In this document: in pieces, positions 1 through 14,777 of the stretch | Layout of the letters: each line of letters opens with the position of its first letter | Numbering within the stretch: position 1 is the stretch's first letter | NCBI GenBank assembly: GCA_027068385.1 | Contig: JAMOTR010000022.1 | Span: 1-14,777, forward strand | Direction of reading: 5' to 3' | DNA: 14,777 nt | Source of the DNA: Candidatus Heimdallarchaeota archaeon | GTDB lineage: Archaea; Asgardarchaeota; Njordarchaeia; Njordarchaeales; JAMOTR01 | Position numbers and translations under genes: made by a program | Notes under the pieces: model-generated | The model's input: only the letters and a program-made list of their open reading frames with translations | Told to the model about the DNA's origin: nothing | Databases searched by the model: none

Positions 1-245
1 CTATCGCCGCGATCCGCTATCCTTAAGGCCATACCCGTCCCCACAGCCGTCCGTCCTAAATCGAGGCCGTATTTATCGTAAAGGTAATCCTTAAGGAAAT
101 AGAGGAACCCGGTTGCGTCGAAGGAGGTCGTCGTGGAGAGGTATACGTACTTAGAAGAGGATGACCGATAATAGTATCCTACGACGGAAGAGCCTAGGAC
201 TATGCCCAGGAGAGCGATCGCTAATAATAAGCGCCTTTTATCCAT
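1..245 (-). CDS. N-terminal fragment (81 codons, runs off the left edge) of a membrane-anchored substrate-binding protein, TupA/COG2998-like (tungstate/oxoanion ABC transporter binding component)
   Basis: Hand translation of the minus strand from ATG at 245-243 gives MDKRRLLLAIALLGIVLGSSVVGYYYRSSSSKYVYLSTTTSFDATGFLYFLKDYLYDKYGLDLGRTAVGTGMALRIADRGD... It has a hydrophobic N-terminal anchor followed by the STTTS..D.TG.L...KYG...AVGTG.AL...RGD pattern remembered from TupA-type binding proteins. It is absent from the ORF track because it is truncated. Confidence 0.5.
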   Translation of the reverse strand, partial: MDKRRLLLAIALLGIVLGSSVVGYYYRSSSSKYVYLSTTTSFDATGFLYFLKDYLYDKYGLDLGRTAVGTGMALRIADRGD

Positions 246-265
246 GAGAGGCCCGACGCGAGTTC

Positions 266-1051
266 TCAAATAACGATAATTAAGAACCTTCGTTCTAAAA
301 ACCTCTTAAGCTCAGGGAGCGTCTCTAGCGTGTTCTTAAATAATATTTCCGCGACGTCTTCGACGGGCATGCGCTTGATTTCAGCGATGGTCTTTAACGA
401 TACCACCACGTTAGCCGGTTCGTTCTTTTCTCCCTTTACCGGAGCTAGTGCGGGAGCGTCGCTTTCTAATAATAAAGCGCTTAGCGGCAACGCTTTAACC
501 ATGTTCTTCTTCTGCTGAGAGCGGACGACGCTAGGGGGGACGGAGAACTTGAAGCCCAACATCGCTCCGCGTTTAGCGTACTTATAACTCCCGTCGAACG
601 CGTGCATGATTACCCTCTTCGGCTTATATTCGGCTAGTATCTCGATACAATACTTTCCCGCAGAGCGAGAGTGAATCACTAGGGGCTTATCTAAGTCTAT
701 AGCGAGCTCTATGAAGCGCTTAAAGACCTCCCTCTGCACCTTTCTTCTCTCCTCCTCGCGTACCCGATAATAGTCTAGACCGACCTCGCCCACGGCTACG
801 ATCTCGTCCTTATGGTCCTCGATGAACTCTATTACTCTCTCCACTAACGAGGAGTCCTCGGCTTTGGTCGGGTGTAATCCTATCGACGGGAATACCGGAG
901 AAAACTTCCTGGATACCTCCAAAGCCTTTTCGTAATCGTCTCCTTCGGAGCTAGTAACGATCGCTACGACCCCGGATTGTAGAGCCCTCTTTATCACGTT
1001 TTCTAAGTCCTCCATCATGTGTATATGAGAGTGGACGTCCACAAGGCGCAT
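266..1051 (-). CDS. TatD-family metal-dependent hydrolase (TIM-barrel amidohydrolase superfamily)
   Basis: 261-aa ORF. The N-terminal VDVHSHIH matches the TatD HxH metal motif. GEVGLDYY, VIHSR, MHAF and ESDAP follow in the order and spacing of the remaining TatD metal-ligand motifs. Confidence 0.85.
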   Translation of the reverse strand: MRLVDVHSHIHMMEDLENVIKRALQSGVVAIVTSSEGDDYEKALEVSRKFSPVFPSIGLHPTKAEDSSLVERVIEFIEDHKDEIVAVGEVGLDYYRVREEERRKVQREVFKRFIELAIDLDKPLVIHSRSAGKYCIEILAEYKPKRVIMHAFDGSYKYAKRGAMLGFKFSVPPSVVRSQQKKNMVKALPLSALLLESDAPALAPVKGEKNEPANVVVSLKTIAEIKRMPVEDVAEILFKNTLETLPELKRFLERRFLIIVI

Positions 1052-1094
1052 ATATGATGAGAGAAGAGCGATTTAACTTCACCGAGACAAATTC

Positions 1095-1463
1095 ATGGTG
1101 ACGAGGAAGGAACTTCGGAGGACGCTCACGATGAGCTCCATAATAATATTTATCCTCGCCATCGTTTCCGCGGCTCTAAAGGAGTTTAACACCATCAGTA
1201 ACGCTAAGGCTTATGCGATAGTTCAAGCCGTGGTACGGTCCCTAATACTCTTCTTCTTCCTCGTTCTTTTCTCATCCTTCCAGCAGTTAAGGCGTAGATA
1301 CGCGGGCATCGTCGAGTTCTTCCTTTCCCGGATAATATCCCTAGTGGGGTTCGGACTAGTTATAGGAGGATGCTCGGAGAAGCTACTAGGTCGGGGGGTA
1401 TTCTTAGTATTAGCTTTTGCGCTCACCGCGTACGTGCTCGCTCAAGGTTTCGAAGTTAAATAA
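1095..1463 (+). CDS. small hypothetical integral membrane protein (about 4 predicted TM helices)
   Basis: 122-aa ORF with four hydrophobic stretches (SIIIFILAIVSAAL, VVRSLILFFFLVLFSSF, IISLVGFGLVIGG, VFLVLAFALTAYVLA). I recognise no family. It is divergent from the TatD gene across a 43-bp spacer. Confidence 0.45.
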   Translation: MVTRKELRRTLTMSSIIIFILAIVSAALKEFNTISNAKAYAIVQAVVRSLILFFFLVLFSSFQQLRRRYAGIVEFFLSRIISLVGFGLVIGGCSEKLLGRGVFLVLAFALTAYVLAQGFEVK

Positions 1464-1491
1464 AGAAGATCAGCGTGACGGAGAAGTCTTG

Positions 1492-1497
1492 TTTTTT
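1492..1497 (+). terminator. oligo-T tract (T6), candidate archaeal intrinsic terminator for the 1095..1463 gene
   Basis: The tttttt run lies 29 nt after the stop codon. Archaeal RNAP terminates at oligo-T tracts. Confidence 0.3.
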
Positions 1498-1656
1498 ACG
1501 AAAACAATTTTGCGTTATTAAAAAAGCTCAAAAGATTTCTTCTGAGCTCTTTGTGTAATAAAACCGAGCGCTCAAAACCTTTGTCTTAATGAAGAAAATG
1601 ACGAGATAGCGCTAAAGGGGGTCACACCTAAAAAGAAGAAATATTAAGCGGAATGT

Positions 1657-2034
1657 ATGCTAGGCCTACACATCATAGCCGAATTCTATGGGGTGGATCC
1701 TAAACTCCTAGATGATGAGAAGTTCCTTAGGCGTACTCTTATAGAGGCCGCGAAGTATGCCGGAGCTAGGGTAATCGGGGAGACCTTCCACAAGTTCTCT
1801 CCCCACGGAGTAACCGGTGTCGTGGCCATAGCCGAGAGCCACATCTCGATCCACACCCGGCCCGAGTTCGGTTATGCCGCTATAGACGCGTTCTCGTGTT
1901 ACTCCGTACACCCTAGGAAGATCATGGAGTACTTAGTGAAGAAGCTTAAGCCGAAGCGCGTGGTGGAGGTCGTAATGCCACGTGGAGAACCATTCGTGGA
2001 GGAGTCTCCCGCCGCCGTAGCGTTAGAGGAGTAG
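1657..2034 (+). CDS. speH: pyruvoyl-dependent decarboxylase proenzyme of the SpeH/AdoMetDC class 1 family (S-adenosylmethionine decarboxylase or its crenarchaeal arginine decarboxylase paralogue)
   Basis: 125 aa. HIIAEFYGV at the N-terminus, the self-cleavage/pyruvoyl motif AESHISIHTRPE (E60/S61), and GYAAIDAFSC are the hallmark blocks of small archaeal/bacterial AdoMetDC proenzymes. Confidence 0.85.
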   Translation: MLGLHIIAEFYGVDPKLLDDEKFLRRTLIEAAKYAGARVIGETFHKFSPHGVTGVVAIAESHISIHTRPEFGYAAIDAFSCYSVHPRKIMEYLVKKLKPKRVVEVVMPRGEPFVEESPAAVALEE

Positions 2035-2664
2035 GTTTCCCGCGTATTTTTTATCTAGTAATATCCTACGACCGCGTATCTCTACCTCTATACGTTCGAT
2101 CTCTAGCCCTTCGGTTATAGGGGAGGAGAAATCTATAGTCGGTCCCCGACGGGTTTTAGCTATCGGCGTAATCGCGGGTAATATCGTTACCTCATATTTA
2201 TCGGTCCTCCCGTAGATCTTAGCTGGGAATACCTCGGATCCGATACGAACGGCCGGGTGTATGTGGCCCATAATGATCTTCGACGCCTCTTTAGGAGGTT
2301 CGCGATGTCCGTGTATAACGAGTATGTCTCCTATTTCGAACCCCTCTTCGTGCCGTTCTATGTTTAAACGCCTCGCCACGGGCCTGAGGTAGTTATCGTG
2401 ATTCCCACGGACTATTATTACGCGATCCACGAGCTTAGATACGTACTCGAGGACGTCGCGCGTCTTCCTTATCACCCTAGGTATGAGCTCGAATCCGTCG
2501 CGCACGTCACCGGCTAACACTAAATAACTCGGGGCGAAGCGTTCTATGAGTCTCTCGAGTTTCTTTTTAAGTACCTCCGAAGTGTCTATAAACGGCAATC
2601 CTAACACGTCTTCCACGCCTATATGTAAATCCGCTACGATCAGATAATCGTCCACGAGCTCCAT
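2023..2664 (-). CDS. calcineurin-like metallophosphoesterase, archaeal SbcD/Mre11-related small phosphoesterase type
   Basis: Ordered motifs are ADLHIG, GDVRDG, GNHD, HGH and GHIHP. I moved the start to the ATG at 2664 (MELVDDYL...), because the 22 extra codons in the ORF track read through the tRNA gene. Confidence 0.8.
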   Translation of the reverse strand: MELVDDYLIVADLHIGVEDVLGLPFIDTSEVLKKKLERLIERFAPSYLVLAGDVRDGFELIPRVIRKTRDVLEYVSKLVDRVIIVRGNHDNYLRPVARRLNIERHEEGFEIGDILVIHGHREPPKEASKIIMGHIHPAVRIGSEVFPAKIYGRTDKYEVTILPAITPIAKTRRGPTIDFSSPITEGLEIERIEVEIRGRRILLDKKYAGNLLL

Positions 2665-2690
2665 ACATATGAAAGTCCGGGATTTAGAAG

Positions 2691-2765
2691 TAGCCCGGCG
2701 GGGATTCGAACCCCGGACCTCCCGGTCCAAAGCCGGGCGCTCTTACCAGGCTGAGCTACCGGGCT
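2691..2765 (-). tRNA. tRNA-Gln (anticodon UUG), 75 nt, no intron, CCA not encoded
   Basis: The reverse complement is AGCCCGGUAGCUCAGCCUGGUAAGAGCGCCCGGCUUUGGACCGGGAGGUCCGGGGUUCGAAUCCCCGCCGGGCUA. It folds as a cloverleaf: 7-bp acceptor stem AGCCCGG/CCGGGCU, D arm GCUC/GAGC, anticodon stem CCCGG/CCGGG with loop CUUUGGA, and T arm CGGGG-UUCGAAU-CCCCG. Confidence 0.9.
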
Positions 2766-2790
2766 CTCCGCTAGATATCTCTATTTCGGC

Positions 2791-2800
2791 TAAAAATAAA
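2791..2800 (-). promoter_or_regulatory. TATA-box-like element (TTTATTTTTA on the minus strand) about 26 nt upstream of the tRNA-Gln 5' end; it may also act as the T-rich terminator of the L11 gene
   Basis: This AT-rich decamer sits in the 36-bp L11-tRNA spacer at the canonical archaeal distance from the mature tRNA 5' end. Confidence 0.5.
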
Positions 2801-2801
2801 C

Positions 2802-3299
2802 TCAATCCTCGAATTCCTTAAAGACGTCGTCGTATTTTCCTTCGTCGATCTCTTTAATACACTCTTTGGGGTTCTTACCCTCACACGTCACACCCATAGA
2901 GAGCATCGTCCCGAGAACGGTCTTCGTGGCGGCCTTAAGGTCGTCGGTGTTAAGATCGGGGAGCTTCTGCTTCGCTATTTCTATCACGTCGCGTATCGAA
3001 AGGTCACCTATTACTTCATGCTTAGGGTTATGGGCTCCCTTCTTCTTACCTAGTTTCTTTAGTATGAGGACGCTCGTGGGTATCTTACCGAGCCTCACTT
3101 CCCGTTGCCTCGTCTGAGGGTCCACCACGATCTCCACGGGTACCTTCATGCCCTCGTATTCCTTCGTGAGCTTGTTGATCTCCTGTACTACTTTCCCTAT
3201 AGGAACTCCTAGAGGCCCAAGCTGGCTAGTCCAGGGACCAGGTCTCGCTTGGCCTCCCCTAAACATAAGCCTCACTACGACTTTGTTATCCTCGGACAT
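2802..3299 (-). CDS. rpl11: 50S ribosomal protein L11 (uL11)
   Basis: 165 aa. The N-terminal domain GGQARPGP...LGPLGVPIGKVVQEINKLTKEYEGMKVPVEIVV and the C-terminal rRNA-binding domain (IAKQKLPDLNTDDLKAATKTVLGTMLSMGV) match archaeal uL11. Confidence 0.9.
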   Translation of the reverse strand: MSEDNKVVVRLMFRGGQARPGPWTSQLGPLGVPIGKVVQEINKLTKEYEGMKVPVEIVVDPQTRQREVRLGKIPTSVLILKKLGKKKGAHNPKHEVIGDLSIRDVIEIAKQKLPDLNTDDLKAATKTVLGTMLSMGVTCEGKNPKECIKEIDEGKYDDVFKEFED

Positions 3300-3400
3300 T
3301 CGGAAAGGAACAGTGAGAGCTTTTTTATGGTATTACCGTATCGTGAATTCCTAAGAAGCGAAGGCGACAACTCTTTTACGAACATCTTAATAAGCTAGCC

Positions 3401-4432
3401 ATGAGCAAGATACGTGTCGCCCTGGTGGGCGTAGGTAATCTCTCGGCTTCGCTCATACAACTTATAACGAAGGGTTCGGACCCCGCTGTCCGCGAGTGTG
3501 TAGGCGGATATAAGGTCTCCGACATAGAGATCGTTGGTGCCGTGGACGTAGACGCTAGAAAAGTAGGAAAGGACGTTTCGGAAGCCGCGTTCATAAGCGG
3601 AGACGCTCGGAAGGCCGTGGACGTTCCGAAGCTAGGGGTAGAAGTGAAAGCCGGAAAGCTCCTCGATGAGTTCCCCCGTGAGGCTTTTCCCGAAGGGGTG
3701 AAGGAGTCCGACGACTTCATCGACGCGTTTAAAGAGGCTGATATAGTGATAAACGCGATATACCCGAACGCCCCGAAGACCTCGAGGTTCTACGCGGAGA
3801 AGGCTTTGGATCTCAAAAAGGCCTTTATAAACGTTACGAACTCCCCCGTAGCTAACGATAGCGAGGTCCAAAAGAAGTTCTCTGAAGCCGGTCTTCCGAT
3901 AGTAGGGGACATGCTCCTAGGCCAAGCGGGCTCCGGAACTTTACACCGCGCCCTACTAGAATTCTTCATACGCCGCGGAGCAGTAGTAGAGGAGACTTAT
4001 CAGCTAGATATAGCCGGAGGAGTCGAAGGGTTCCTAAACTTCTACGAGCCCATAAGGGAGGACATCAAAGCGCGGCGCTCTAAGTTCGTACGTGACCATT
4101 TGAACATCGATCCCGAGATGGTCGTGAGCGGATCGAGCGATTACGTGGACTTCATGCGCAACTCTAGGACCTCTTACTTACGGTTCAAGGGACGCTCCGC
4201 TTTAGGAGCCCCGTTCGAGATGGATGTAAGATTCACTCATCGGGACGGTCCTGATGCCGTGGCGATATTAGTAGACGTGATACGTGCGACGAAGATCGCG
4301 ATGGATCGCAACGTGAGCGGATATCTCCTTAGCGTAGGACTCTATGGGTTCCAGATCGTCCCTACTTACGTCCCTCTACACGTAGCCGAGCGCATGTTCG
4401 ACGAATTCGTGCGCGGAGTGAGGTGTATATGA
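3401..4432 (+). CDS. myo-inositol-1-phosphate synthase family protein (COG1260-like), short and divergent form
   Basis: The N-terminal Rossmann block IRVALVGVGNLSASLIQ resembles VRVAIVGVGNCASSLVQ of bacterial/archaeal Ino1. The central TYQLDIAGGVEGFLNF aligns with the YQLNVGGNMDFLN block, though its conserved GGNxD is changed. Confidence 0.6.
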   Translation: MSKIRVALVGVGNLSASLIQLITKGSDPAVRECVGGYKVSDIEIVGAVDVDARKVGKDVSEAAFISGDARKAVDVPKLGVEVKAGKLLDEFPREAFPEGVKESDDFIDAFKEADIVINAIYPNAPKTSRFYAEKALDLKKAFINVTNSPVANDSEVQKKFSEAGLPIVGDMLLGQAGSGTLHRALLEFFIRRGAVVEETYQLDIAGGVEGFLNFYEPIREDIKARRSKFVRDHLNIDPEMVVSGSSDYVDFMRNSRTSYLRFKGRSALGAPFEMDVRFTHRDGPDAVAILVDVIRATKIAMDRNVSGYLLSVGLYGFQIVPTYVPLHVAERMFDEFVRGVRCI

Positions 4433-5385
4433 GCATAGTGGAGGAGGCTGTTAAGTCATGGCCGGAGGTTATAAGATCTTTTCTAAAGAAGTTTCCCGGG
4501 GTGGAGCTTCCCGTTAAGGAGCCTCGCTCTATAGTAATTTCCGGAATAGGCTCCTCTGCCGCGGGAGGGTTATTTCTCGAACCTATAAGTCCGGTTCCCG
4601 TGGTTATCTCTAGGGACGTAGTGTTACCGAGGTTTGTATCCCCCAAGGATCTAGTATTAATATGCTCCTATTCCGGTAACACGCCCGAGACTTTGTTGAG
4701 CTTAAGGGACGCCTTAGCTAGGGGCATAAATCCCGTAGTTCTCACATCGGGCGGTAAGCTCTTGAGCGTAGCCGAGGAATTAGGCCTCCCGCTAGTTAAG
4801 ATAGAGCCCGGTGGGTATACGAGCAGGGCCATGGTGGGCTTAATAATCACGGCTACGATCGCGACTGTTGACCCCATAGTGAACGCTCGGAACCTACTAG
4901 AAAAAGTCCCGGACGTGCTCGCTTGGGCAATTAAGGACGAAGAGAACATACGCTCTATCGCCTTAAGGATCGGAGGAAGGGCTATAGTATCCGTAGGTTA
5001 CGGCCCTTATAAGCCGGGAATGAAGCGTATCGTGGCGGAATTTAGGGAGAACTCCAAGCTTCCCGCGTTCTACGTAGAACTCCCAGAAGGAAATCATAAC
5101 TACTATGTTACTTTGGGCCACCCAGGCGTGATACATCTGTATCCTGAACACGAGCGGAGGTCGAGCCTAGCGAAGCACGCGTTCCGGCTTAACGATAAGG
5201 AGCACGTACCCATAAGGGTCTCGAATCGGGGATTCCTAGGAAACTTCGAGATCCTAATTAAGGCGGCACTATCCTCGATAAGACTAGCGAGGCTTCTGGG
5301 AAGGGATCCGGACGATATAAGAGCTATAGAGGAAATCAAAAAGAAGTTCTTGGAAGAAATGAAGGACGTTTTTAAACGAATATGA
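4429..5385 (+). CDS. bifunctional phosphoglucose/phosphomannose isomerase (crenarchaeal PGI/PMI, SIS domain)
   Basis: ISGIGSSAAGG, CSYSGNTPETL, and RIVAEFRENSKLPAFYVELPEGNHNYY (compare the NEFNENAK...LPEAHHN block of Pyrobaculum/Aeropyrum PGI/PMI). I prefer the ATG at 4429: it is preceded by GGAGTGAGGTG (SD-like) and forms an ATGA overlap with the upstream stop. A GTG at 4423 is the alternative. Confidence 0.75.
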   Translation: MSIVEEAVKSWPEVIRSFLKKFPGVELPVKEPRSIVISGIGSSAAGGLFLEPISPVPVVISRDVVLPRFVSPKDLVLICSYSGNTPETLLSLRDALARGINPVVLTSGGKLLSVAEELGLPLVKIEPGGYTSRAMVGLIITATIATVDPIVNARNLLEKVPDVLAWAIKDEENIRSIALRIGGRAIVSVGYGPYKPGMKRIVAEFRENSKLPAFYVELPEGNHNYYVTLGHPGVIHLYPEHERRSSLAKHAFRLNDKEHVPIRVSNRGFLGNFEILIKAALSSIRLARLLGRDPDDIRAIEEIKKKFLEEMKDVFKRI

Positions 5386-6100
5386 ACAGCGTCTCTTCTT
5401 CGTAATGCCTATCGAGCGTAATTCCTCCACGAATCCTTAATATGCGCTTACCTAGTACCCGACGTTCGAACTCCCTCACGCGTTTCTCTACGTCCCCTTT
5501 GAGGAACTTTATAGGAACGGTAACGAACAAAGGTCTCGCGGGCATCACGTGTCTAGTCGTCTTAGCCGGGAAGAGGCGACCCTCTAATGCCCTCTCTACG
5601 ACGCGATCTTTAGATAGTTCGTACGGCAACACCGCGAGCTTATCGGGTTCCCTATAGTGTAGGAACGCGATGTTTTCCTTGCCGTACTCAGCGTCTAGAA
5701 TCTTCACGGCCTCTTCCGATATCCTAAATACGTCCTGACCGTATACTATCCGCTCCCCCATAGGATCCTCGAAATCCTTAAGCTTAGCCTCCCGAGACCG
5801 ATCGTTAATGTGTCTTACCCACACGTCGAGTTTCACGATCTCGTAAGGTATCTTAAACGCGGGAATAAGGTCCAATCCCAACACCTTAGCGGCCGCGAGC
5901 CTATGCATTCCGTCGAGCACAACGTTCGTGTCCTTCTCCACTATGATCGGATGCTCTATGTATCCGGACCTCTTTATCGCCTCCACGAGCCTCTTAAGTG
6001 ATCCCTCAACGATCTCCTCATGAGGATATACTTCCTCTATAGGTAGGAGCGTAAGCTCGCACGCGTAGTACTTATCGTTATATTTTAGATGAAGCCGCAT
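5372..6100 (-). CDS. ParB/sulfiredoxin-fold domain protein; possible free serine kinase (SerK)-like enzyme
   Basis: 242 aa. The ParB-N-like core HPIIVEKDTNVVLDGMHRLAAAKVLGL has the DGxHR motif, and YPHEE lies near the N-terminus. Size and architecture resemble the archaeal ParB-annotated ADP/ATP-dependent serine kinases. The start codon directly abuts the argS stop (6100/6101). Confidence 0.55.
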   Translation of the reverse strand: MRLHLKYNDKYYACELTLLPIEEVYPHEEIVEGSLKRLVEAIKRSGYIEHPIIVEKDTNVVLDGMHRLAAAKVLGLDLIPAFKIPYEIVKLDVWVRHINDRSREAKLKDFEDPMGERIVYGQDVFRISEEAVKILDAEYGKENIAFLHYREPDKLAVLPYELSKDRVVERALEGRLFPAKTTRHVMPARPLFVTVPIKFLKGDVEKRVREFERRVLGKRILRIRGGITLDRHYEEETLFIFV

Positions 6101-7984
6101 TCACATCACCTCCACTATAGGTATCCCTAGGACATCTAGTAGAAGCTCCATCGCCTTTATGTAAGCCTTAACGATCCCTAAGCGTGCCCCGCGTATATGG
6201 TCGGGCTCCCCAGCTACGCGACAGGATTCGTAGAACTCGTTAAACCTCATCGCGAGCTCGTAAGCGTATCTCGCTAGAAGTTGAGGATCCATTTTCTCAG
6301 CCGCCTCCACGAAGCGTTCACGGATCTCTAATAGGGACCTTACAAGAGGCCGCTCCTTATCACACAAGAACGCTCCTTCGGGATCGAATTCTGCGGGCTC
6401 GCTCTTCTTTATTATGTTCTTCGCGCGTACTACGGAATACTGTATGTACGGCCCGCTTTCCCCGCTTAAGTTCATAGCCTCTTCTATGTCGAAGACCATG
6501 TCCTTGAGTCTATCGTACTTCAGCATCATGTACCTCACGGAGGCGACCATGATCTTACGTGCGATCTCGCGCGCTTCCTTTAAGTCGAGCTCGGGGTGTT
6601 TAGAGAGTATGTTTTCTAGGGCTATCTTCTCGATCTCATCGAACAAATCGTCCGCGATGATCCCGATCCCTTTGCGACCGGACATCTTCACGATCTCCTT
6701 CTTCGAGTAAATCCCGAACCTTTCCGCGGTCTTTTTGGATAGATGTACGACTCCATATGCGTAGTGTATGAAGTTCCTCGCTTGTTCTTCGTACCCCATC
6801 GCTTCGAGAGCGTATCTTATGATCGCTTGTAGTACGCCTTGGCGTATGTCGATCACGTTAATTACTATATCCGCCTTCCCGAATCCGTCCTTCTTCCCCT
6901 CAAAGCTAGTAGTCCGCAGCTCCTTACCGCTCGGATAGCGCATAAACACATCGTATAGGAAGTCCTTATCCACGAGTCCGAACTTCCGTAGCGTGTATCC
7001 TATGTCCTTCAATAAGTACGTGAACGTACCGTCGCTCCTCACTAACACCTTAGCTCCCTTATCGAGGGCCTTAAACTCGCGCTTATTAGGGAGCTTTATC
7101 ACGATCGCTCCGGAGAATTCGTCCTCCCCTTCCACCGCCACGCCTTTTTCTTTAAGCTTCCTCAGAGCCTCCTCAGCTAGTCCCAAGCGTATAATATGGC
7201 TCTCCCGGGTGAGTAGATCGTACTCTATTTCTAGCCTATACATGGTTTCTATGTGCCTCTTACATATGCGCCTAGAGACCTCGCGCGCGAACTCCGCGAG
7301 CTCCGAAGATCCGCGCTCTAGCTCCTTTAGAACCTCCCTTTGATACTTTACTAGCTCTTTATCTATTTCGTACCGCTTATTTACGAGCGTGTATACGTGC
7401 CGACAATACTTATCTAGAGGCTCGTATCTATCGAGATCTTCCTTCCTTAGTCCCCTTAAGAACCGGAGTCCCACCACAGTATCGGCTACTTGGACGCCCG
7501 TATCGTCGATGTAGTTTTGTACTTCTACGTCGTATCCGTATCTCCTTAATATCCTCGCTAGCGCATCACCGAGCACCGCGTTGCGTACGTGACCTATGTG
7601 AGCGGCTTTATTCGGATTTATGTTCGTATGCTCGACGACGACCTTCTTGTTCTTCTTCTCAAAGCTCAACGGGTCCCCTTGTAGCTCTTCTAGTAGGTCC
7701 TTTAGAGCCCTCTTTTTATCGAGAAAGACGTTTATGTATCCCTTCGCCACCTCCACTTTCTCTACGAAATCGAGCCCCTTCACCACCTCCGCGGCCTCTT
7801 TCGCTATATCTTCAGGAGGCCTCTTAAGGACCTTCGCGAGAGAGAAACCGATGGGGGTCGCTATGTCGGCTACCTCAAAGCTCGGCGGAGGAGTAAAGCG
7901 TATTTTCGGTTCTACCCCATACTTTTCCCTAAAGTATTCTCTAATTCTCTCCGCGATCTCCTTCTTATAATCATCTATCAGCAC
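6101..7984 (-). CDS. argS: arginine--tRNA ligase (arginyl-tRNA synthetase)
   Basis: 627 aa. It has the class I HIGH motif (NPNKAAHIGHVRNAVLGDALARIL) and the KMSKS-equivalent VKMSGRKG. The C-terminal DALR-type anticodon-binding helices end in the typical terminal Met. Confidence 0.95.
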   Translation of the reverse strand: MLIDDYKKEIAERIREYFREKYGVEPKIRFTPPPSFEVADIATPIGFSLAKVLKRPPEDIAKEAAEVVKGLDFVEKVEVAKGYINVFLDKKRALKDLLEELQGDPLSFEKKNKKVVVEHTNINPNKAAHIGHVRNAVLGDALARILRRYGYDVEVQNYIDDTGVQVADTVVGLRFLRGLRKEDLDRYEPLDKYCRHVYTLVNKRYEIDKELVKYQREVLKELERGSSELAEFAREVSRRICKRHIETMYRLEIEYDLLTRESHIIRLGLAEEALRKLKEKGVAVEGEDEFSGAIVIKLPNKREFKALDKGAKVLVRSDGTFTYLLKDIGYTLRKFGLVDKDFLYDVFMRYPSGKELRTTSFEGKKDGFGKADIVINVIDIRQGVLQAIIRYALEAMGYEEQARNFIHYAYGVVHLSKKTAERFGIYSKKEIVKMSGRKGIGIIADDLFDEIEKIALENILSKHPELDLKEAREIARKIMVASVRYMMLKYDRLKDMVFDIEEAMNLSGESGPYIQYSVVRAKNIIKKSEPAEFDPEGAFLCDKERPLVRSLLEIRERFVEAAEKMDPQLLARYAYELAMRFNEFYESCRVAGEPDHIRGARLGIVKAYIKAMELLLDVLGIPIVEVM

Positions 7985-8062
7985 GATCTTTTATATACGA
8001 TACTCCTCATAAACCCGATCGCTGAGTGGAAAAGCTGTTGAACGTCTCTTTATTTAAGTCCT

Positions 8063-9187
8063 ATGTTGATCGTAGAGAGCATAAGGTATACGGCTCCCTT
8101 AGGATCGATTAGATATTTCACGCTTATGGCAGCTCCGAGTGGTAACGACTTCTCGTTGTTGCTCTTCGATCCCGGTCCTCCTGGGACGGAAAAGATGATA
8201 TTATATCACGTGAGAAAGGTGGAGAAATACCTAAGAAGAAACCTTAACGCTAAAGTTAAGCGCGTTTATCTTCTACTCACGCACACGCACCCCACCACGG
8301 CCGGATCGTCGGGATCCCTAGAGAAGGCGTTGAGACAATATGACGTAAAAACGTACGCGCACGTCCGGTCGATTCCGCTCATAGAGAAAGGGAAGAAACC
8401 GGAAATGTGGTTAGAACACCGGTTCGAGCGGGATACTCATAGGAAGCTACGGCTTTTCTACAGCCTCTCTCCAGTGGTATATCGGCCGTACTATACGCGG
8501 TACGTATCGACGTACTCTCTACCCGAGAAAATAGAGCCGCTAATACCTACAGATCGGTCCCCGGAGACGTTCTCTCGGCATAAGCTCGACCTCGACGTGG
8601 ACGTCGATATAAGGTGGATGCGGACCGCGGGTCATACTTATGAGCACGTAGTGTATCGCGTCGATGGAGATGAATTCACCGCACTCGTGCTCGGTGACGA
8701 GGGGCCTGTGATACTGGGGGCGTTTCCTATATGGTATAACGACTCCACCTCCCGGGCGTTCGCGCTTAAGGATTTAGAGAAGCGCCACGACGCGATCCGG
8801 AATGGTATTGAAGAAGCCCGGGTATACCGGACTCACGGAGCTCACAGGTATACTTATGAGGAGCGGAAGGTCATGGTCACGAGATATCTAAATGCGCTAT
8901 GGGAGGCGGCTAGCACGGAGTTCGAGTCCTTAGAAGAGGCTATAAGGATGCGCGTCTCAGACGCGGCCGCAGCGATGCTCTTGTGGGACTACTTCTCTAA
9001 ATATCCCGAGACCATAAAGCGCTCGAAGATACGTAAGACGCATTACATAAACGCGGAAAACTTACCTATATTTACCACGAGAGCGGCTTTAATATATCTA
9101 AACGGCCGCGGTCTTCACAGAAAAATCGTCACGAGGAACTTGGATCCGAAGGGAAGATATCGGTACATCGAGGTGATAACGCCCTGA
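8063..9187 (+). CDS. hypothetical protein with a degenerate metallo-beta-lactamase-like fold and a possible C-terminal winged-helix
   Basis: The MBL-like order of blocks is LLLFDPGP, LLLTHTHPTTAG (HxHxDH with D and H both replaced by T), AGHTYEH, LVLGDEG and THGAH. The C-terminal LIYLNGRGLHRKIVTRNLDPKGRYRYIEV looks like a wHTH wing. Confidence 0.4.
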   Translation: MLIVESIRYTAPLGSIRYFTLMAAPSGNDFSLLLFDPGPPGTEKMILYHVRKVEKYLRRNLNAKVKRVYLLLTHTHPTTAGSSGSLEKALRQYDVKTYAHVRSIPLIEKGKKPEMWLEHRFERDTHRKLRLFYSLSPVVYRPYYTRYVSTYSLPEKIEPLIPTDRSPETFSRHKLDLDVDVDIRWMRTAGHTYEHVVYRVDGDEFTALVLGDEGPVILGAFPIWYNDSTSRAFALKDLEKRHDAIRNGIEEARVYRTHGAHRYTYEERKVMVTRYLNALWEAASTEFESLEEAIRMRVSDAAAAMLLWDYFSKYPETIKRSKIRKTHYINAENLPIFTTRAALIYLNGRGLHRKIVTRNLDPKGRYRYIEVITP

Positions 9188-10073
9188 TAAGCCTCCGAAG
9201 GCTCCGATTTACCGGGGCGTTTAACCCTTTATTTTCGGCTTTCTCCACGATCTTACCGTTTATCCGATCTATCTCCGTAGGCCTCCCGCTTAATACGTCC
9301 ATAGCCATCGAAGAATAATTGTTATACGTAAGCTCGATACCCCTTCTTACGATCGATATCATGTCGTCCGGAAGCTCTACCCCGTAAGCCTTCGCTACCT
9401 CGACCGTCTCCTCCGTCGCCCTTTTGACCACTTCCCAAGCGTCCTCGCGTTCTAATATTTCCCCGTTTTTAATCCTTAGAAGAGCAGTTACGGGGTTTAT
9501 CCCAGCGTTTATCGCGGCCTTAAACCGCTCTATGAATGGCGTCTCGTTGATCTCTACAGGTAACCCGGCTAGTTCCCGTAAGCGTTTGAACTCCTCACAC
9601 TTCCCTCCCTCGTCTCTACCTATGAGCGTCTTATTTATCCCGGCTATGAAGACCGTGTTCTTAGATTTCCTATACGCTCCGATCCCCGTCACTCCACGTA
9701 CAGGATTACTCACCGAACCGGCGACGAAGTCTAAGATATCGAGCCCGTTTTGTAGGAAGAGCGTGGGCCTCTCGAAGCCGCGCCTCTTAAGTTCTTTGAG
9801 CCTTTTTACTACGCTTCCTAAATGGTAGGCCTTTACCGTTACGATGACGAGCTCGGGTCTCTTCTCTAATATCTTTTGAATCCCCTCTTCTCTTTCCCGA
9901 TTTATAAAGAGCGCGTTATAACGTCCGCTTAGACCTTCTATATCGCTTTCCGCGAAAATTATGTTCTCCTTCACGTCGCTCCTCGTAAGTATTATTACAT
10001 CCACGCCCGCCTTAGAAAAAAGCGCTCCTAGAGAGAGGCCTATAGAACCGTTTCCCACTATCGCTACCCTCAT
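9129..10073 (-). CDS. panE: 2-dehydropantoate 2-reductase (ketopantoate reductase, PanE/ApbA family)
   Basis: It has the N-terminal Rossmann MRVAIVGNGSIGLSLG, the FKAAINAGINPVTALL block with the catalytic Lys, and SSMAMDVLSGRPTEIDRINGKIV (SMxxD...TEID signature). The ATG overlaps the stop of the upstream 796-aa gene (ATGA at 10070-10073). Confidence 0.8.
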   Translation of the reverse strand: MRVAIVGNGSIGLSLGALFSKAGVDVIILTRSDVKENIIFAESDIEGLSGRYNALFINREREEGIQKILEKRPELVIVTVKAYHLGSVVKRLKELKRRGFERPTLFLQNGLDILDFVAGSVSNPVRGVTGIGAYRKSKNTVFIAGINKTLIGRDEGGKCEEFKRLRELAGLPVEINETPFIERFKAAINAGINPVTALLRIKNGEILEREDAWEVVKRATEETVEVAKAYGVELPDDMISIVRRGIELTYNNYSSMAMDVLSGRPTEIDRINGKIVEKAENKGLNAPVNRSLRRLIRALSPRCTDIFPSDPSSS

Positions 10074-12460
10074 ATCTCGATGAGTCTTATATACCGTTTA
10101 TTACCTCCCTTAGCGATAAGCGGCAGGTATCCCTCGGAGATGTTTCTGAAGAAGGAGCCGAAGTACTCTTGGAGTATGCGCTCGTCCCTTACGGGCATCC
10201 GCCCTTTCGAAGCCTCCGATAAGAACGATGTGTCGAAGGGAGCTACGTCCCTAGCGGCCACTTTATATGCTACGTCCTGGAAGTACGATGTATTTACTAT
10301 TCCTACAGAGCCGTTACGGTAAGCTAGCGTCACTACGGTCTCCGCTTCCCCATAAAGGCTCACGTATCCGAAATTAGACGCGATGTTAAACAATGAGTAT
10401 AGCGCCTCCTCGAACGTGATCGTGCGCTTCACGAGCATCGATAACTCCATCACCTCCCTAAGCCTCAGGGGCCTCAACCTCTCCTCTTTAATCTCGTCCC
10501 GTAAGGAGAGCGTTAGTCCGCTCGAGGCGGCTACCTTAAAGAGGTGTATATGTACTTTATCGATCACGTACGGCTTAGAATTGAGGGCATAACGCAACTT
10601 CGTGAAGATCTCCTCAGCGTCACCGTGAGCTATGTATAGGACGGACTTAGAAGGATGATCGCCCACGAAGTCTATGTACTCTAAGAGCTCCGAGAGGCTC
10701 TCACCGTAATAGCTCGTAATTAACGCTAAGGGTATCGAGAAGAGTACTATAGGATGAATGCGTATGAGATACAAGAAGCGCTTCTGGGAACCTATGTACT
10801 TCTTCCGGAGCTTTATGAACTCCCTTATGAACTTCGACGTATACCTTTCCGCTACGCTCGCGGGCCGTTCGTGTTTTCCTCCTGGCGAGTTCCGATCTAG
10901 TATCCCCCGTACGATCCAAGAGAAGGCGAATATATCGGAGAGCAAGGGGAAGCTAGTTTCTAGTATCCGCTTCGTCGAAGCTATTTTCGTGCTTCTCACA
11001 TACTTTAACCGGGTCCTACCTTTATCGTAGAAGATCTCCGCGGAACTTAACCGCCCCGTCTGTAGCGCGTCGGCTACGAACGTTAATAGTCTATATCCCG
11101 TCCGCTTACGCATAGGCGAACCCAATGAATATATGAAGTTCAACGCTACGGAGGCGTCCACAACGGCCGTGCGCTCTTTAGCGAACGTCTTCTTTAGTAG
11201 CCGTAGCCGGAATGGGAGCTCGAAGATCACGTCATCCATATATTTCACGTCGAAGGCCTCGAAGTTCTTCCTAAGGAACTCATATAGCGGGGTGTCCTCG
11301 CCACCGGGAACGCGCCTGATGCCGTCTTCCGTAATGAGGCCCGTCGGTATGTTATTTACTTGATCGCTCGAGTATACGTAGGAAAGTGCCTTATAGAGCG
11401 CGCTTAACGCATCCCCTATGAGGAGTTTTATGTTATCTTCCTCTACCATGCGCGACAACGTCTTACGTCTCAGATCTACGACCATCGCTAGTCCTAAAGC
11501 CTTCGCCTCGGATGAGGTAAGCGAACGCTTTAATGCCCTCTCTATGATACTAGCCGGTGAGATCCCCTCTTTACCGAAATAACGGTCACCGTCCGACCTA
11601 TACCGAGACAACGCGTCTAAGAGTATATCATGAGTAACGGGCATCGTCCGGTAGAGGCGTTTATCATATTGTAACATCCGAACCTTCTTCTTAAGACCGG
11701 GTATACCGACGTAGAACCCCAAGAGCGTTATGAAAGATAGTATGTCCTTCCTTTCGAGGCCCCGTAACCGTGATGATAACGATTCTACCTCGTCGAGACC
11801 GGGGCTAAATGAGATAAGGCCGAGGACACCGTGGAGGAAAGTATCCGAAGGGGCCGAGACGACCCTATTGATATAAAGCGTCTCCGCTACTATTTGGTTT
11901 ATATACGGGCTCCTCGATCCTAATAGGGCCTCTAGGATTAGCGTGTTCTTACCGGTAACGATCTCGGGCTCGCTTACGATCGCTAACCCCTCGTTTTCGT
12001 CGAGCCGCACCTTATACATGGACTTATCGTTTAACATCCCTAAGACGCGGGATAAGAGGAGGGATAAGGAGATGATGACGCGCGGCTCATCGGCCCCTAT
12101 GGGTGAGAATAATCTTATTGGAACGCCATGGAGCCCGGTGTAGAAAGAACCTAAGAGCGAAGAGGCTACGAGCATCGAATACGTCCGCTTCGTTCCGTCT
12201 CCCGTCTGTAGCTCTTTCTCTAGTTCCTCTATGTCCTTCCGGGCGGGATAATCGGGTATGATGTTCACGCTACCGTGGGCGAACAACGCGGTCTTCGTCT
12301 CGTCTATAGCCTTCATTAACTCATACCTATCTATCTTGAGGAACTCGGAGAGCACGTCTATAGTCTTTTCTATCGTATCTTCCGGCCTCTTAGCCCTGAT
12401 CTTCGTGTTCTCTATCAAATACGCTAGTCCGGGGAGCCCGATGTGTTCAAGTACGCCCAT
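10070..12460 (-). CDS. large (796 aa) uncharacterised protein with no recognisable catalytic or nucleotide-binding motif
   Basis: This is an uninterrupted 2.4-kb ORF with codon usage like its neighbours. It has zero Cys, one Trp, no Walker A, no HD, no GGDD, no HxHxDH and no zinc-finger pattern. It is divergent from the RAMP cassette and translationally coupled to panE. Confidence 0.6.
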   Translation of the reverse strand: MGVLEHIGLPGLAYLIENTKIRAKRPEDTIEKTIDVLSEFLKIDRYELMKAIDETKTALFAHGSVNIIPDYPARKDIEELEKELQTGDGTKRTYSMLVASSLLGSFYTGLHGVPIRLFSPIGADEPRVIISLSLLLSRVLGMLNDKSMYKVRLDENEGLAIVSEPEIVTGKNTLILEALLGSRSPYINQIVAETLYINRVVSAPSDTFLHGVLGLISFSPGLDEVESLSSRLRGLERKDILSFITLLGFYVGIPGLKKKVRMLQYDKRLYRTMPVTHDILLDALSRYRSDGDRYFGKEGISPASIIERALKRSLTSSEAKALGLAMVVDLRRKTLSRMVEEDNIKLLIGDALSALYKALSYVYSSDQVNNIPTGLITEDGIRRVPGGEDTPLYEFLRKNFEAFDVKYMDDVIFELPFRLRLLKKTFAKERTAVVDASVALNFIYSLGSPMRKRTGYRLLTFVADALQTGRLSSAEIFYDKGRTRLKYVRSTKIASTKRILETSFPLLSDIFAFSWIVRGILDRNSPGGKHERPASVAERYTSKFIREFIKLRKKYIGSQKRFLYLIRIHPIVLFSIPLALITSYYGESLSELLEYIDFVGDHPSKSVLYIAHGDAEEIFTKLRYALNSKPYVIDKVHIHLFKVAASSGLTLSLRDEIKEERLRPLRLREVMELSMLVKRTITFEEALYSLFNIASNFGYVSLYGEAETVVTLAYRNGSVGIVNTSYFQDVAYKVAARDVAPFDTSFLSEASKGRMPVRDERILQEYFGSFFRNISEGYLPLIAKGGNKRYIRLIEI

Positions 12461-12499
12461 AGAATTATGTACTCCCGGGAGAGAAAAAGTAGTGAGCTC

Positions 12500-12555
12500 G
12501 ATGATGAGAGCGGGCTATACTGATCGTAGGATGAGGAGTGAATCCCAAGCTGAAG
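12500..12555 (+). ncRNA. archaeal C/D box sRNA (2'-O-methylation guide) with two 12-nt guides
   Basis: C box AUGAUGA (12501-12507), a 12-nt guide GAGCGGGCUAUA, D' box CUGA (12520-12523) and a 7-nt spacer. Then C' box AUGAGGA (12531-12537), a 12-nt guide GUGAAUCCCAAG, and D box CUGA (12550-12553). The 12-nt box spacings are the archaeal hallmark. It lies in a non-coding divergent spacer, and an AATTAT element at 12463-12468 could be its TATA box. Confidence 0.7.
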
Positions 12556-12563
12556 TTTAAGAG
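12556..12563 (+). promoter_or_regulatory. TATA-box-like element TTTAAGAG about 27 nt upstream of the ATG at 12587 (implies a leaderless or near-leaderless transcript for the RAMP cassette)
   Basis: The AT-rich octamer comes directly after the sRNA D box. Its distance to the first ATG of the 144-aa gene fits archaeal TATA-to-TSS spacing. Confidence 0.35.
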
Positions 12564-12586
12564 GTTTCTTTCTTATCGTTTGTATC

Positions 12587-13021
12587 ATGAAAAACAACCC
12601 CCGTAGGAGGGATATGGATAAAGAAGCCTCTCCGTGGATAACTAAGGACGATATCAGAAATCGGAACGAAGAGAGACTCATAGAGAAGATCGAGAAGAAC
12701 TTGAGCAGGCTTAAGGGTAGAAGGGAGCTAAGCAGAGGAAACGTGTATAACGTCCTTTATAAGATAAAGATCGCCCGCGTATACCTCGAGAACCTCGGGG
12801 AGGAGAACGATAAAGCTAAGAAGGCCGTTCACGACGCTATCTTGGAGTTCTCGAAGTTCTCGGTTAAATACCTAAATAGAAACACCTTAGAAGAGGTAAT
12901 CAAAGCTTATGAGGAAATGCTCCACGAGAACAACGGGGCGGAGGCGACGTTAAGGTTCTTAAAGGTCCTCGAGGAGCGGCTTACGACCCTCGCCATCCCG
13001 CTATATAAGAAGAAAGCCTAA
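12587..13021 (+). CDS. small, highly charged, predicted all-alpha protein; positional candidate for a type III small subunit (Cas11/Csm2-like)
   Basis: 144 aa, with K/E/R/L-rich heptad-like helices. It lies 3 nt upstream of the Csm3-like gene, in the slot csm2 occupies in type III-A operons. I see no sequence motif that proves this. Confidence 0.35.
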   Translation: MKNNPRRRDMDKEASPWITKDDIRNRNEERLIEKIEKNLSRLKGRRELSRGNVYNVLYKIKIARVYLENLGEENDKAKKAVHDAILEFSKFSVKYLNRNTLEEVIKAYEEMLHENNGAEATLRFLKVLEERLTTLAIPLYKKKA

Positions 13022-13024
13022 AGG

Positions 13025-13858
13025 GTGAGGCTTATGGAGAACGATAATAAGTACTCCTTCCAGCTCAGGATATACGTAGAGATACCCGTAGTCGTAGAGG
13101 TAAGAACGGGCCTGTTCATAGGCGGTTTAGAGAGCGACGTGGCGGATAATCCGATCATAAAGGATAAGTACGGATACCCCTACATCCCCGGATCCTCGAT
13201 CAAGGGGAGGATACGCTCTATACTAGAGTTGCTGAACGGAAACATAGACCCCTCAGGAGGGCCGCGGAACCCCGAGAAGGCGCTAAATTTATCCAATAAT
13301 CCTTCCCCTGATGAGTTACGTAAGGTATATGAAGATGTGCTCGCGAGGGTGTTCGGGTACAGTCCTAAGAACAATCGGTTCTTCGGCCCCACCCGCATAT
13401 ATATCGAGGACTTCGTGCTCGAGGATAAGGAGGGAAAGAGCCCGCTCGACTTCATGGAGCTGAAGCCGGAGAATCAAATAGATAGATACACGGGACAAGC
13501 TAGGAACCCGCGCATCGTGGAGCGTATCATCCCGGGATCGAGGTTCCGCGGTAGGATAAAGATCATAGCGTTCGACGTGAAGGAGGGGGATAAGCTCATT
13601 AAAGACGCTAAGAGCGAGCTTAAAGAAGCTCTGGAGTTAGCGCTAGTGGGTCTAAAGCGGCTCGAAAGGCTGGGCCTAGGAGGAAAAATCTCGCGCGGGT
13701 ACGGACAGATAAAGATAAGAGTAGGGAAGGTAGCCGGGAAGAACGTAGCGATATTCCCTAGCAAGATGGGCGGAAAAGAGTACGAAGAGAGTGAGATTAT
13801 AGAGCTCGTTAACAGCCTAATAGGAAAGTATCTCGGTGGTTCGGATGCAGGTGCCTAA
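13025..13858 (+). CDS. csm3: type III CRISPR RAMP backbone subunit, Csm3-like (Cas7 family)
   Basis: VRTGLFIGGLESDVADNPIIKDKYGYPYIPGSSIKGRIRS (glycine-rich start, candidate catalytic Asp, RAMP PGSS.KG..R motif). Also RVFGY, TRIYIEDF, ENQIDRYTGQARNPRIVERIIPGSRF and the C-terminal G-rich loop LGLGGKISRGYGQIKI. An alternative start is the ATG at 13034, preceded by GGTGAGG. Confidence 0.85.
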   Translation: MRLMENDNKYSFQLRIYVEIPVVVEVRTGLFIGGLESDVADNPIIKDKYGYPYIPGSSIKGRIRSILELLNGNIDPSGGPRNPEKALNLSNNPSPDELRKVYEDVLARVFGYSPKNNRFFGPTRIYIEDFVLEDKEGKSPLDFMELKPENQIDRYTGQARNPRIVERIIPGSRFRGRIKIIAFDVKEGDKLIKDAKSELKEALELALVGLKRLERLGLGGKISRGYGQIKIRVGKVAGKNVAIFPSKMGGKEYEESEIIELVNSLIGKYLGGSDAGA

Positions 13859-14777
13859 GAGGACCCTCTTGGGAGACGGTTCGGTGAAGCTTTCGATCGA
13901 GTTAAGGTTCGACGTTTTTAACGGCAAGGGCTTCTACTCGATACTCTCACAGACCACGAGGATCGAGAGCGCGATAGATCTCAAGCCCCTCAAGCTCTCC
14001 GACGTGGTAAAGAAAGCTTTCTACGCTCCGATATCGGGCGCTAATACCATTCATGAGGTGATAAAGCACCCAAACGGAACAGCGTACGTGCCTGGCTCCG
14101 CGTTAAAGGGGGCGATACGGACCACGATGGCCCTATCGGATCCGAACGCCTTCGAGCAGATATTAAATAACGTGAACCTCATGAGGGTTCTCGGGTACAC
14201 GTTCATCGTAAGGGACGTCGATATAGGGGAGCCGGACGTGATGGAGGCGACGCGCATATACGTAACCAACTGCCGCACGGTAAGGAACGTAAGGAGGCTT
14301 CAAGAAGTCCTCTCTAAGAGCTTCTCGTTCGATATACTCTTTAGGGAGGTGGACGTCCCCGTCGATAAGTTCGTCAAAACGATAAATAACAAGCTCCCGC
14401 CCGAGTCTCTAGAGGCGCTTCGGGATCTCAAGAGGATGGGTAACGTGATACGCGTATCCCCGAATCCTAATAAGTTTAAGGACGCGATCATAAGGGGGTC
14501 TCAGGAGATAAATAAGAGGCTCAAGAGGCGGCGCTCAATGGGCACTCGGTGCAAAAACATCGTCCGGAGCGGAGAGGCGAACTTCGCTTTAGGCTTCGGG
14601 AGCTCGTGTGTGACTAAAGTACTTAGGATCAAGAGGGCGCCCGGGAGGTTCTCTTGTTATAAGCGCAATCGGGTCATGGATAACTTCCATAGGAGCGGCT
14701 TTCCTCACTCCCTTTGGACCGTAAAGATCGACGACAAGTATTATCCCCTGGGGCTAGGAAAAATAGCGGTAAAATAA
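13836..14777 (+). CDS. type III RAMP protein, Csm5-like (Cas7-group capping subunit) or related divergent RAMP
   Basis: YVPGSALKGAIRT (compare Csm5 IPGSS.KGAIRT), the glycine-rich LGFGSS, and a C-terminal YPLGLGKIAV resembling the P.GW.K terminus of Csm5. It overlaps the csm3-like gene by 23 nt (GTG at 13836) or 14 nt (ATG at 13845). The stop codon is the last triplet of the window. Confidence 0.6.
   Translation: MVRMQVPKRTLLGDGSVKLSIELRFDVFNGKGFYSILSQTTRIESAIDLKPLKLSDVVKKAFYAPISGANTIHEVIKHPNGTAYVPGSALKGAIRTTMALSDPNAFEQILNNVNLMRVLGYTFIVRDVDIGEPDVMEATRIYVTNCRTVRNVRRLQEVLSKSFSFDILFREVDVPVDKFVKTINNKLPPESLEALRDLKRMGNVIRVSPNPNKFKDAIIRGSQEINKRLKRRRSMGTRCKNIVRSGEANFALGFGSSCVTKVLRIKRAPGRFSCYKRNRVMDNFHRSGFPHSLWTVKIDDKYYPLGLGKIAVK

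Follow-up and report, generated by a model that had tools for sequence, protein, structure and literature searches.

The gene examined here encodes a 796-residue (796-aa) protein of no recognised family. It lies in a stretch of 14,777 nucleotides from Candidatus Heimdallarchaeota archaeon (contig JAMOTR010000022.1, positions 1 to 14,777 of the forward strand; hereafter the window), divergently from a cassette of RAMP genes related to type III-A CRISPR (Csm) systems. With moderate confidence, the product was judged to be a lineage-specific protein unrelated to that cassette. It would then be genuine, fast-evolving and confined to one poorly sampled archaeal lineage; its gene would be a long-term chromosomal resident, expressed ahead of a PanE/ApbA-family reductase gene in a unit of two, and its adjacency to a stranded three-gene Csm remnant would most likely be positional and not functional. 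The protein may be soluble, basic and largely helical, and may bind nucleic acid. The only candidate active site would be a conserved strand-YMDD-strand element together with an aspartate 59 residues upstream; if this element is real, the protein would be a palm-type nucleotidyltransferase. The initial annotation had left a choice between a dead CRISPR large subunit, a new effector partner and an unrelated protein. That choice was borne out in part: the balance leans to the last of the three, while the lead towards Cas10 found no support.

10070..12460, minus strand: gene for the 796-aa orphan protein (an ATG-started open reading frame (ORF) with its translation and a full-length homologue)

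A single detectable relative was found among about 15 billion public proteins. This sole homologue (P0002, 777 aa) is located in a related uncultured archaeon, where the gene order is the same as here, and it aligned end to end with 49-51% identity, few gaps and coincident start codons. Nothing but the protein itself and P0002 came back from two large searches, a word-indexed one of 5.8 billion protein clusters and an exhaustive HMMER one of 1.84 billion representatives with a two-sequence profile of the pair. No further homologue was found in GTDB species genomes, which were scanned twice (the second time anchored on arginyl-tRNA synthetase, ArgRS), or in the scanned JGI metagenome contigs, IMG/VR, plasmids and phages. 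At default thresholds, nothing in Pfam, NCBIfam and PADLOC or among the PDB sequences matched the 796-aa protein, and Pfam and PADLOC gave no match at E<=10 either when the whole protein, its homologue and four overlapping segments were searched; the two-sequence profile as query likewise found nothing. The original description of an orphan with no placeable family therefore holds in a stronger form, with two members in the whole of public protein space. The novelty of the family consists in the lack of a detectable relative, which reflects ignorance and does not demonstrate a new system.

The gene is real, coding and under purifying selection. An identical protein was present on contigs of four samples, with 796 codons open in all four, and comparison with the homologue gave a non-synonymous difference (pN) of 0.34 against a synonymous difference (pS) of 0.71. 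For ArgRS from the same genome pair, the corresponding values were 0.14 and 0.75, so that non-synonymous evolution of the 796-aa protein was about 2.4 times faster. The GC content, GC content at third codon positions (GC3) and synonymous codon usage of the gene, like those of the RAMP genes, were indistinguishable from the values of neighbouring housekeeping genes. Given this native composition, nothing suggests recent import. A compositional test of whether the gene and the RAMP cassette had come from one foreign source also revealed no anomaly.

Translation of the ORF confirmed the figures first given for the protein, namely 796 residues, no cysteine, one tryptophan and the largest gene of the window (ArgRS, with 627 aa, is next). 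The protein is basic (pI 9.3), with a strongly hydrophobic stretch at aa 563-585 that is kept in the homologue. Cysteine is absent from both family members. As the average over 21 neighbouring proteins was 0.44% cysteine (and 0.24% tryptophan), 3.5 cysteines would be expected in 796 residues and the probability of none is about 0.03; the absence of cysteine is thus only mildly unusual, and the single tryptophan is unremarkable. Regular-expression checks found no Walker A, GGDD, metallo-beta-lactamase (MBL) HxHxDH or CxxC motif, and self-comparison found no internal repeats. The earlier statement that no known motif could be placed was accurate for these patterns, but it had overlooked two conserved elements, the protein's one HD dipeptide (aa 277-278, conserved in the homologue) and a YMDD at aa 407-410.

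9129..10073, minus strand: PanE/ApbA-family 2-dehydropantoate reductase-like gene (Pfam ApbA, E 2.8e-19; ApbA_C, E 1.1e-32)

The TGA stop codon of the 796-aa gene overlaps the ATG of panE as ATGA, as had been reported before and as the junction sequence confirmed, and the same 4-nucleotide (nt) overlap is present in the second genome (contig L001, 2960 versus 2963). In this genome, unrelated same-strand neighbours are commonly packed this tightly: a deoxyhypusine synthase gene follows the Csm5-like gene after 9 nt on the same strand, ArgRS is followed by a SerK/ParB-like gene with a gap of 0 nt, and TatD by a substrate-binding protein gene with a gap of 20 nt. With tight packing the norm for unrelated pairs, the contention that the ATGA coupling argues against a role in defence carries little weight. 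In this compact genome, the arguments from panE coupling and from a head-to-head arrangement with the RAMP genes are both weak.

An alternative hypothesis, rather unlikely, was that the 796-aa protein is a large-subunit-like partner of the Csm cassette, which has neither cas10 nor csm4. The protein would in that case be an extremely diverged, cyclase-dead Cas10 (to which the smaller share of this probability was assigned) or an unrelated replacement, docking on a backbone of Csm3, the Csm5-like protein and a 144-aa protein and using CRISPR RNAs (crRNAs) supplied in trans. The cassette comprises the following genes.

12587..13021, plus strand: 144-aa helical, lysine-rich protein, in the csm2/cas11 position of canonical III-A operons
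13025..13858, called start ATG 13034, plus strand: Csm3 (Cas7), TIGR02582 130 bits (cut-off 90), Pfam RAMPs
13836..14777, plus strand: Csm5-like RAMP (Cas7 group), 313 aa, matched by PADLOC and NCBIfam Csm5 models on PGSxxKGxxR

The three genes of the RAMP cassette form an isolated module: the flanks examined, reaching about 15 kb beyond the cassette and about 10 kb on the side of panE, held no cas10, csm4, cas6, cas1, cas2 or CRISPR array. The 144-aa protein had no detectable similarity to Csm2. The catalytic aspartate of Csm3 (D38) is retained and is invariant across an alignment with six Csm3 homologues. The 313-aa RAMP was assigned to Csm5 with an hhalign probability of 89%, and Csm5 chains of the PDB matched it weakly; its identification as Csm4/Cas5 was rejected at an hhalign probability of 0.2%. 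As an observation on the csm3 region itself, four further contigs (L005, L006, L015 and L016, from samples ERZ27262631 and SRR32938004) end inside csm3 at differing positions, leaving about 20-26 codons uncovered; these assembly breaks hint that the middle part of Csm3 varies between strains.

Several observations favour a functional link and weigh against an unrelated lineage-specific protein. The 796-aa gene occupies the canonical place of cas10, just upstream of the gene that takes csm2's position, and its product is of Cas10 size (782-860 aa). Csm3 looks catalytically intact, with its aspartate and motifs kept, although the cassette has no large subunit and none lies in the roughly 25 kb of flanking sequence, which raises the question of a partner. 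The overlap with panE indicates co-expression and not shared function, given that packing is equally close between unrelated genes of the locus. Moreover, the query profile consisted of two sequences (effective number of sequences, Neff, 1.4), which leaves little power in the profile negatives reported below, and AlphaFold2 models from the two-sequence alignment reached a predicted local distance difference test (pLDDT) score of only 32.5 at full length and 40.6 for aa 586-796, too low for a usable fold comparison; Foldseek on these models returned generic helical noise (E>0.1, template modelling (TM) score <0.3). A partner of this kind would also agree with a protein that is basic, an orphan and some 2.4 times faster in non-synonymous evolution than ArgRS. 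Finally, there are precedents among reduced type III systems. Effector loci without arrays or adaptation genes have been described, for example III-G (PMC12669027), in which Csx26 is an unrecognisable substitute for Cas11 (PMC12669027). [quoted passage not shown]

Against such a partnership, comparison with models and alignments of Cas10, Cas8 and Csx gave no sign of similarity. For reference, six canonical III-A loci were retrieved via homologues of the window's Csm3; all six have the order cas10-csm2-csm3-csm4-csm5 on one strand, and alignments of Cas10, Csm2, Csm4 and Csm5 were built from them. The orphan pair aligned to the six-sequence Cas10 alignment with an hhalign probability of 0.4%, and to Csm2, Csm4, Csm5 and the 144-aa neighbour with 0.3% or less. 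When segments 586-720 and 320-470 were compared with the Palm1/Palm2 columns of Cas10, the probability was 0.6% or less. The Cas10 models of Pfam (PF22335 Cas10-Cmr2_palm2 and PF18211 Csm1_B), NCBIfam and PADLOC did not match, those of Pfam and PADLOC not even at E<=10; as a positive control, the same Pfam models matched the Cas10s of the fetched III-A loci. A search of PADLOC-DB for Cas8 variants, Csf1, Cas10d, Csx and known defence proteins returned 0 families at E<=10, a negative of limited weight given that large-subunit families are very diverse. The Palm2 cyclase motifs (DxDNLG ... GGDD) are absent from the 796-aa protein in intact or recognisably degenerate form, as are any GGD[DE], an N-terminal HD motif and GIQxFI. 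With no cysteine, the four-cysteine treble-clef zinc finger is excluded, so the earlier remark that its cysteines are missing applies to both members of the family.

10604..10645, minus strand: SVLYIAHGDAEEIF, aa 606-619, the candidate GGDD-like segment of the initial annotation

This segment, which had been likened to the GGDD palm motif of Cas10, does exist, but it had been placed one residue off its true position at aa 606-619 (nt 10604-10645). It is partly conserved in the homologue, as RVNIARGDAERIF. The proposed resemblance found no support: its HGDAEEIF did not align with Cas10 Palm2 (hhalign probability 0.2%). A local match of 'NFIYS' to the GIQxFI of Cas10 Palm1 was likewise discarded, as the invariant G, I and Q are missing, the motif order is wrong and the Asp is also unconserved in the homologue. 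Judged by its sequence, the 796-aa protein is not recognisable as Cas10 or as another known CRISPR large subunit.

The arrangement of the locus also counts against a partnership. The 796-aa gene lies on the strand opposite to the cassette, with a small RNA (sRNA) gene between them, its tight coupling to panE is found in both genomes, and there is no Csm4/Cas5 to anchor a Cas10. In the second genome, a divergent small-protein gene is kept beside the homologue, which speaks for a partnership, but the contig stops 67 nt past this gene, before any readable RAMP gene. The gene in question (L001 68-556, minus strand) was called at 162 aa from a GTG that falls inside the conserved sRNA, and its true start is probably M17, giving 146 aa. 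The 146-aa protein and the 144-aa protein of the window share about 23% identity (shuffle z 3.2-3.4, p 0.004-0.01), and a TATA-like element is located about 21-25 nt upstream of each small-gene ATG (TTTAAG, window 12556-12561). Past the small gene, the L001 contig end offers only a 19-aa ORF fragment, a length at which a true Csm3 N-terminus also scores at background. The small and the 796-aa proteins do not co-vary in rate, because the former are about 23% and the latter 51% identical, and this too speaks against a partnership.

Furthermore, a large orphan is not a rare thing in this region. Large proteins unmatched by Pfam (505, 558 and 796 aa) are the products of 3 of about 28 genes, and a 374-aa protein of the same locus is likewise without a Pfam match. 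The presence of a large orphan beside the cassette is therefore not very surprising, and a chance neighbour is not unlikely.

Were the partnership nevertheless true, the locus would encode a type III-derived effector built on a large subunit unrelated to Cas10 in sequence and without Cas5; it would extend the reductive series of III-G, III-H, III-I and VII and provide a compact RNA-guided module. If false, the protein would be one more large ORFan of a barely sampled archaeal lineage. The specific proposal that the 796-aa, 144-aa, Csm3 and Csm5-like proteins together form an undescribed reduced type III-derived effector, with no Cas5, no array of its own and no recognisable Cas10, was considered doubtful. 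In that event, the 796-aa protein would represent a large subunit of a new kind and might have a palm active site of the YMDD type.

11231..11242, minus strand: YMDD, aa 407-410, the sole DD dipeptide of the 796-aa protein, invariant in the homologue

A palm-domain nucleotidyltransferase, similar to a reverse transcriptase (RT) or to a cyclase and with or without a role beside the RAMPs, was thought improbable. This possibility overlaps with both the lineage-specific and the large-subunit readings, and it would place the active site at the YMDD hairpin and D350. In its favour, the sole and invariant DD dipeptide lies in a context, FDVKYMDDVIFELPF, whose flanks are hydrophobic and strand-like on both sides. 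Read by eye, four elements fall in the order of RT motifs A, B, C and E, with RT-like spacing: D350 (LLIGDALSAL) 59 aa upstream of YMDD, ED(T/S)P.Y.FL at 388-396 between the two, the YMDD itself, and F-I-(Y/H)-SLG at 442-447, 37 residues downstream. For comparison with group II intron RTs, three sequences were taken from the PDB. Along the best hhalign path of aa 320-470, KYMDD fell on RYADD and VPGGEDTPLY on TPQGGPLSPLL; the probability was only 0.2% (E 0.25), and across the three RTs probabilities were 0.1-0.2%. Neither Pfam RVT_1 nor the PADLOC defence-RT models matched, even at E<=10 on segments. In addition, the homologue does not conserve the P-G-G at the putative motif B, and a comparable pattern can be read in aa 606-650, so that patterns of this type arise easily by eye. 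The YMDD element thus resembles palm motif C as a lead only, and statistical support for it is nil.

The notion that the ORF was called in error or belongs to a pseudogene in decay, to which the lack of annotation, name or domain in any source might point, was effectively refuted by the homologue alignment and pN/pS, as the frame is open over 796 codons in four samples and collinear with a 777-aa homologue whose start codon coincides, pN is well below pS, and codon usage is typical of the genome.

Having set these alternatives against the reading as a lineage-specific protein, the surroundings of the gene are described next. The 796-aa gene and the RAMP cassette are separated by a divergent region of 126 bp. 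The initial annotation had placed the two head to head, and the divergent orientation was confirmed, but the 126-bp gap holds an unannotated C/D box sRNA gene and is more than a simple bidirectional promoter.

12497..12555, plus strand: C/D box sRNA gene (boxes, conserved blocks and sub-threshold Rfam matches)
12501-12507, plus strand: C box, ATGATGA
12508-12519, plus strand: first guide, 12 nt
12520-12523, plus strand: D' box, CTGA
12531-12537, plus strand: C' box, ATGAGGA
12538-12549, plus strand: second guide, 12 nt
12550-12553, plus strand: D box, CTGA

This element carries the features by which archaeal C/D box sRNAs were recognised (RUGAUGA, a D' CUGA, a UGAUGA-like C' and a D CUGA in this order, guides of 10-12 nt and a length of about 55-60 nt), and it is predicted to be an independent gene. 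Its two 12-nt guides are GAGCGGGCUAUA and GUGAAUCCCAAG. The counterpart in the second genome is located at about 540-597 of L001 and is oriented opposite to the 777-aa gene. The two sequences agree perfectly over blocks of 23 and 19 nt, although flanking synonymous sites are saturated; boxes and D guide show no difference, and the D' guide keeps 11 of its 12 bases. About 20 Rfam archaeal sR families matched 12497-12555, mostly end to end, with 9-19 bits. These scores are below the gathering scores, as is to be expected given that guides are family-specific. No target of either guide was found in the window.

Further observations concern the neighbouring genes. Convergent with panE, and overlapping its 3' end by 59 nt, is a gene for a 374-aa protein (8063-9187, plus strand) with no Pfam match. 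Its motifs are degenerate and MBL-like (LLLTHTHPTTAGS, AGHTYEH and LVLGDE), and its ortholog on L001 matched Pfam Lactamase_B at E 0.29 only; the protein may be a diverged and possibly inactive member of the MBL fold. A tRNA-Gln gene (anticodon TTG; 2690-2765, minus strand) is overlapped by a mechanically called 235-aa ORF with a TTG start (2023-2730), and the true metallophosphatase gene nearby is the shorter, 213-aa call. The neighbour of deoxyhypusine synthase on contig L002 (5124-6800, plus strand) is a 558-aa protein without a Pfam match. Its N-x-S/T sequons, over 20 in number, and a hydrophobic anchor at the C-terminus with KRRR after it give it the look of an archaeal surface glycoprotein. 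On the same contig, uL5 (4286-5050, plus strand) was called at 254 aa, of which residues ~19-185 match archaeal uL5 chains of solved ribosomes, implying a C-terminal extension of about 70 residues or a mis-called gene end.

Among known systems, the comparison with RTs (RVT_1; group II intron, GsI-IIC, PDB 6AR1) yielded a shared YMDD with hydrophobic flanks, an aspartate about 59 residues upstream and a similar spacing, whereas the 796-aa protein has no significant similarity to them, no conserved Q-G of motif B and no recognisable fingers or thumb motifs. Cas10/Csm1 of III-A systems is alike in size (796 aa versus 782-860 aa in the fetched loci) and in location, with the 796-aa gene directly upstream of the csm2-position gene and near a genuine Csm3. 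Unlike Cas10, however, the gene runs on the other strand beyond an intervening sRNA gene, has no Csm4 partner and is probably co-transcribed with panE, and its product has no N-terminal HD, GGDD, GIQxFI, zinc-finger cysteines or profile similarity. The Cas10 derivative of III-I and the III-G and III-H systems provide precedents for subunits unrecognisable by sequence and for loci without arrays, and so count against a lineage-specific protein of no CRISPR connection. With the lineage-specific ORFans of sparsely sampled archaea, the 796-aa family shares its restriction to a narrow clade, its native codons and its housekeeping setting; it differs from them in its unusual length of 796 aa and in adjoining defence-type genes.

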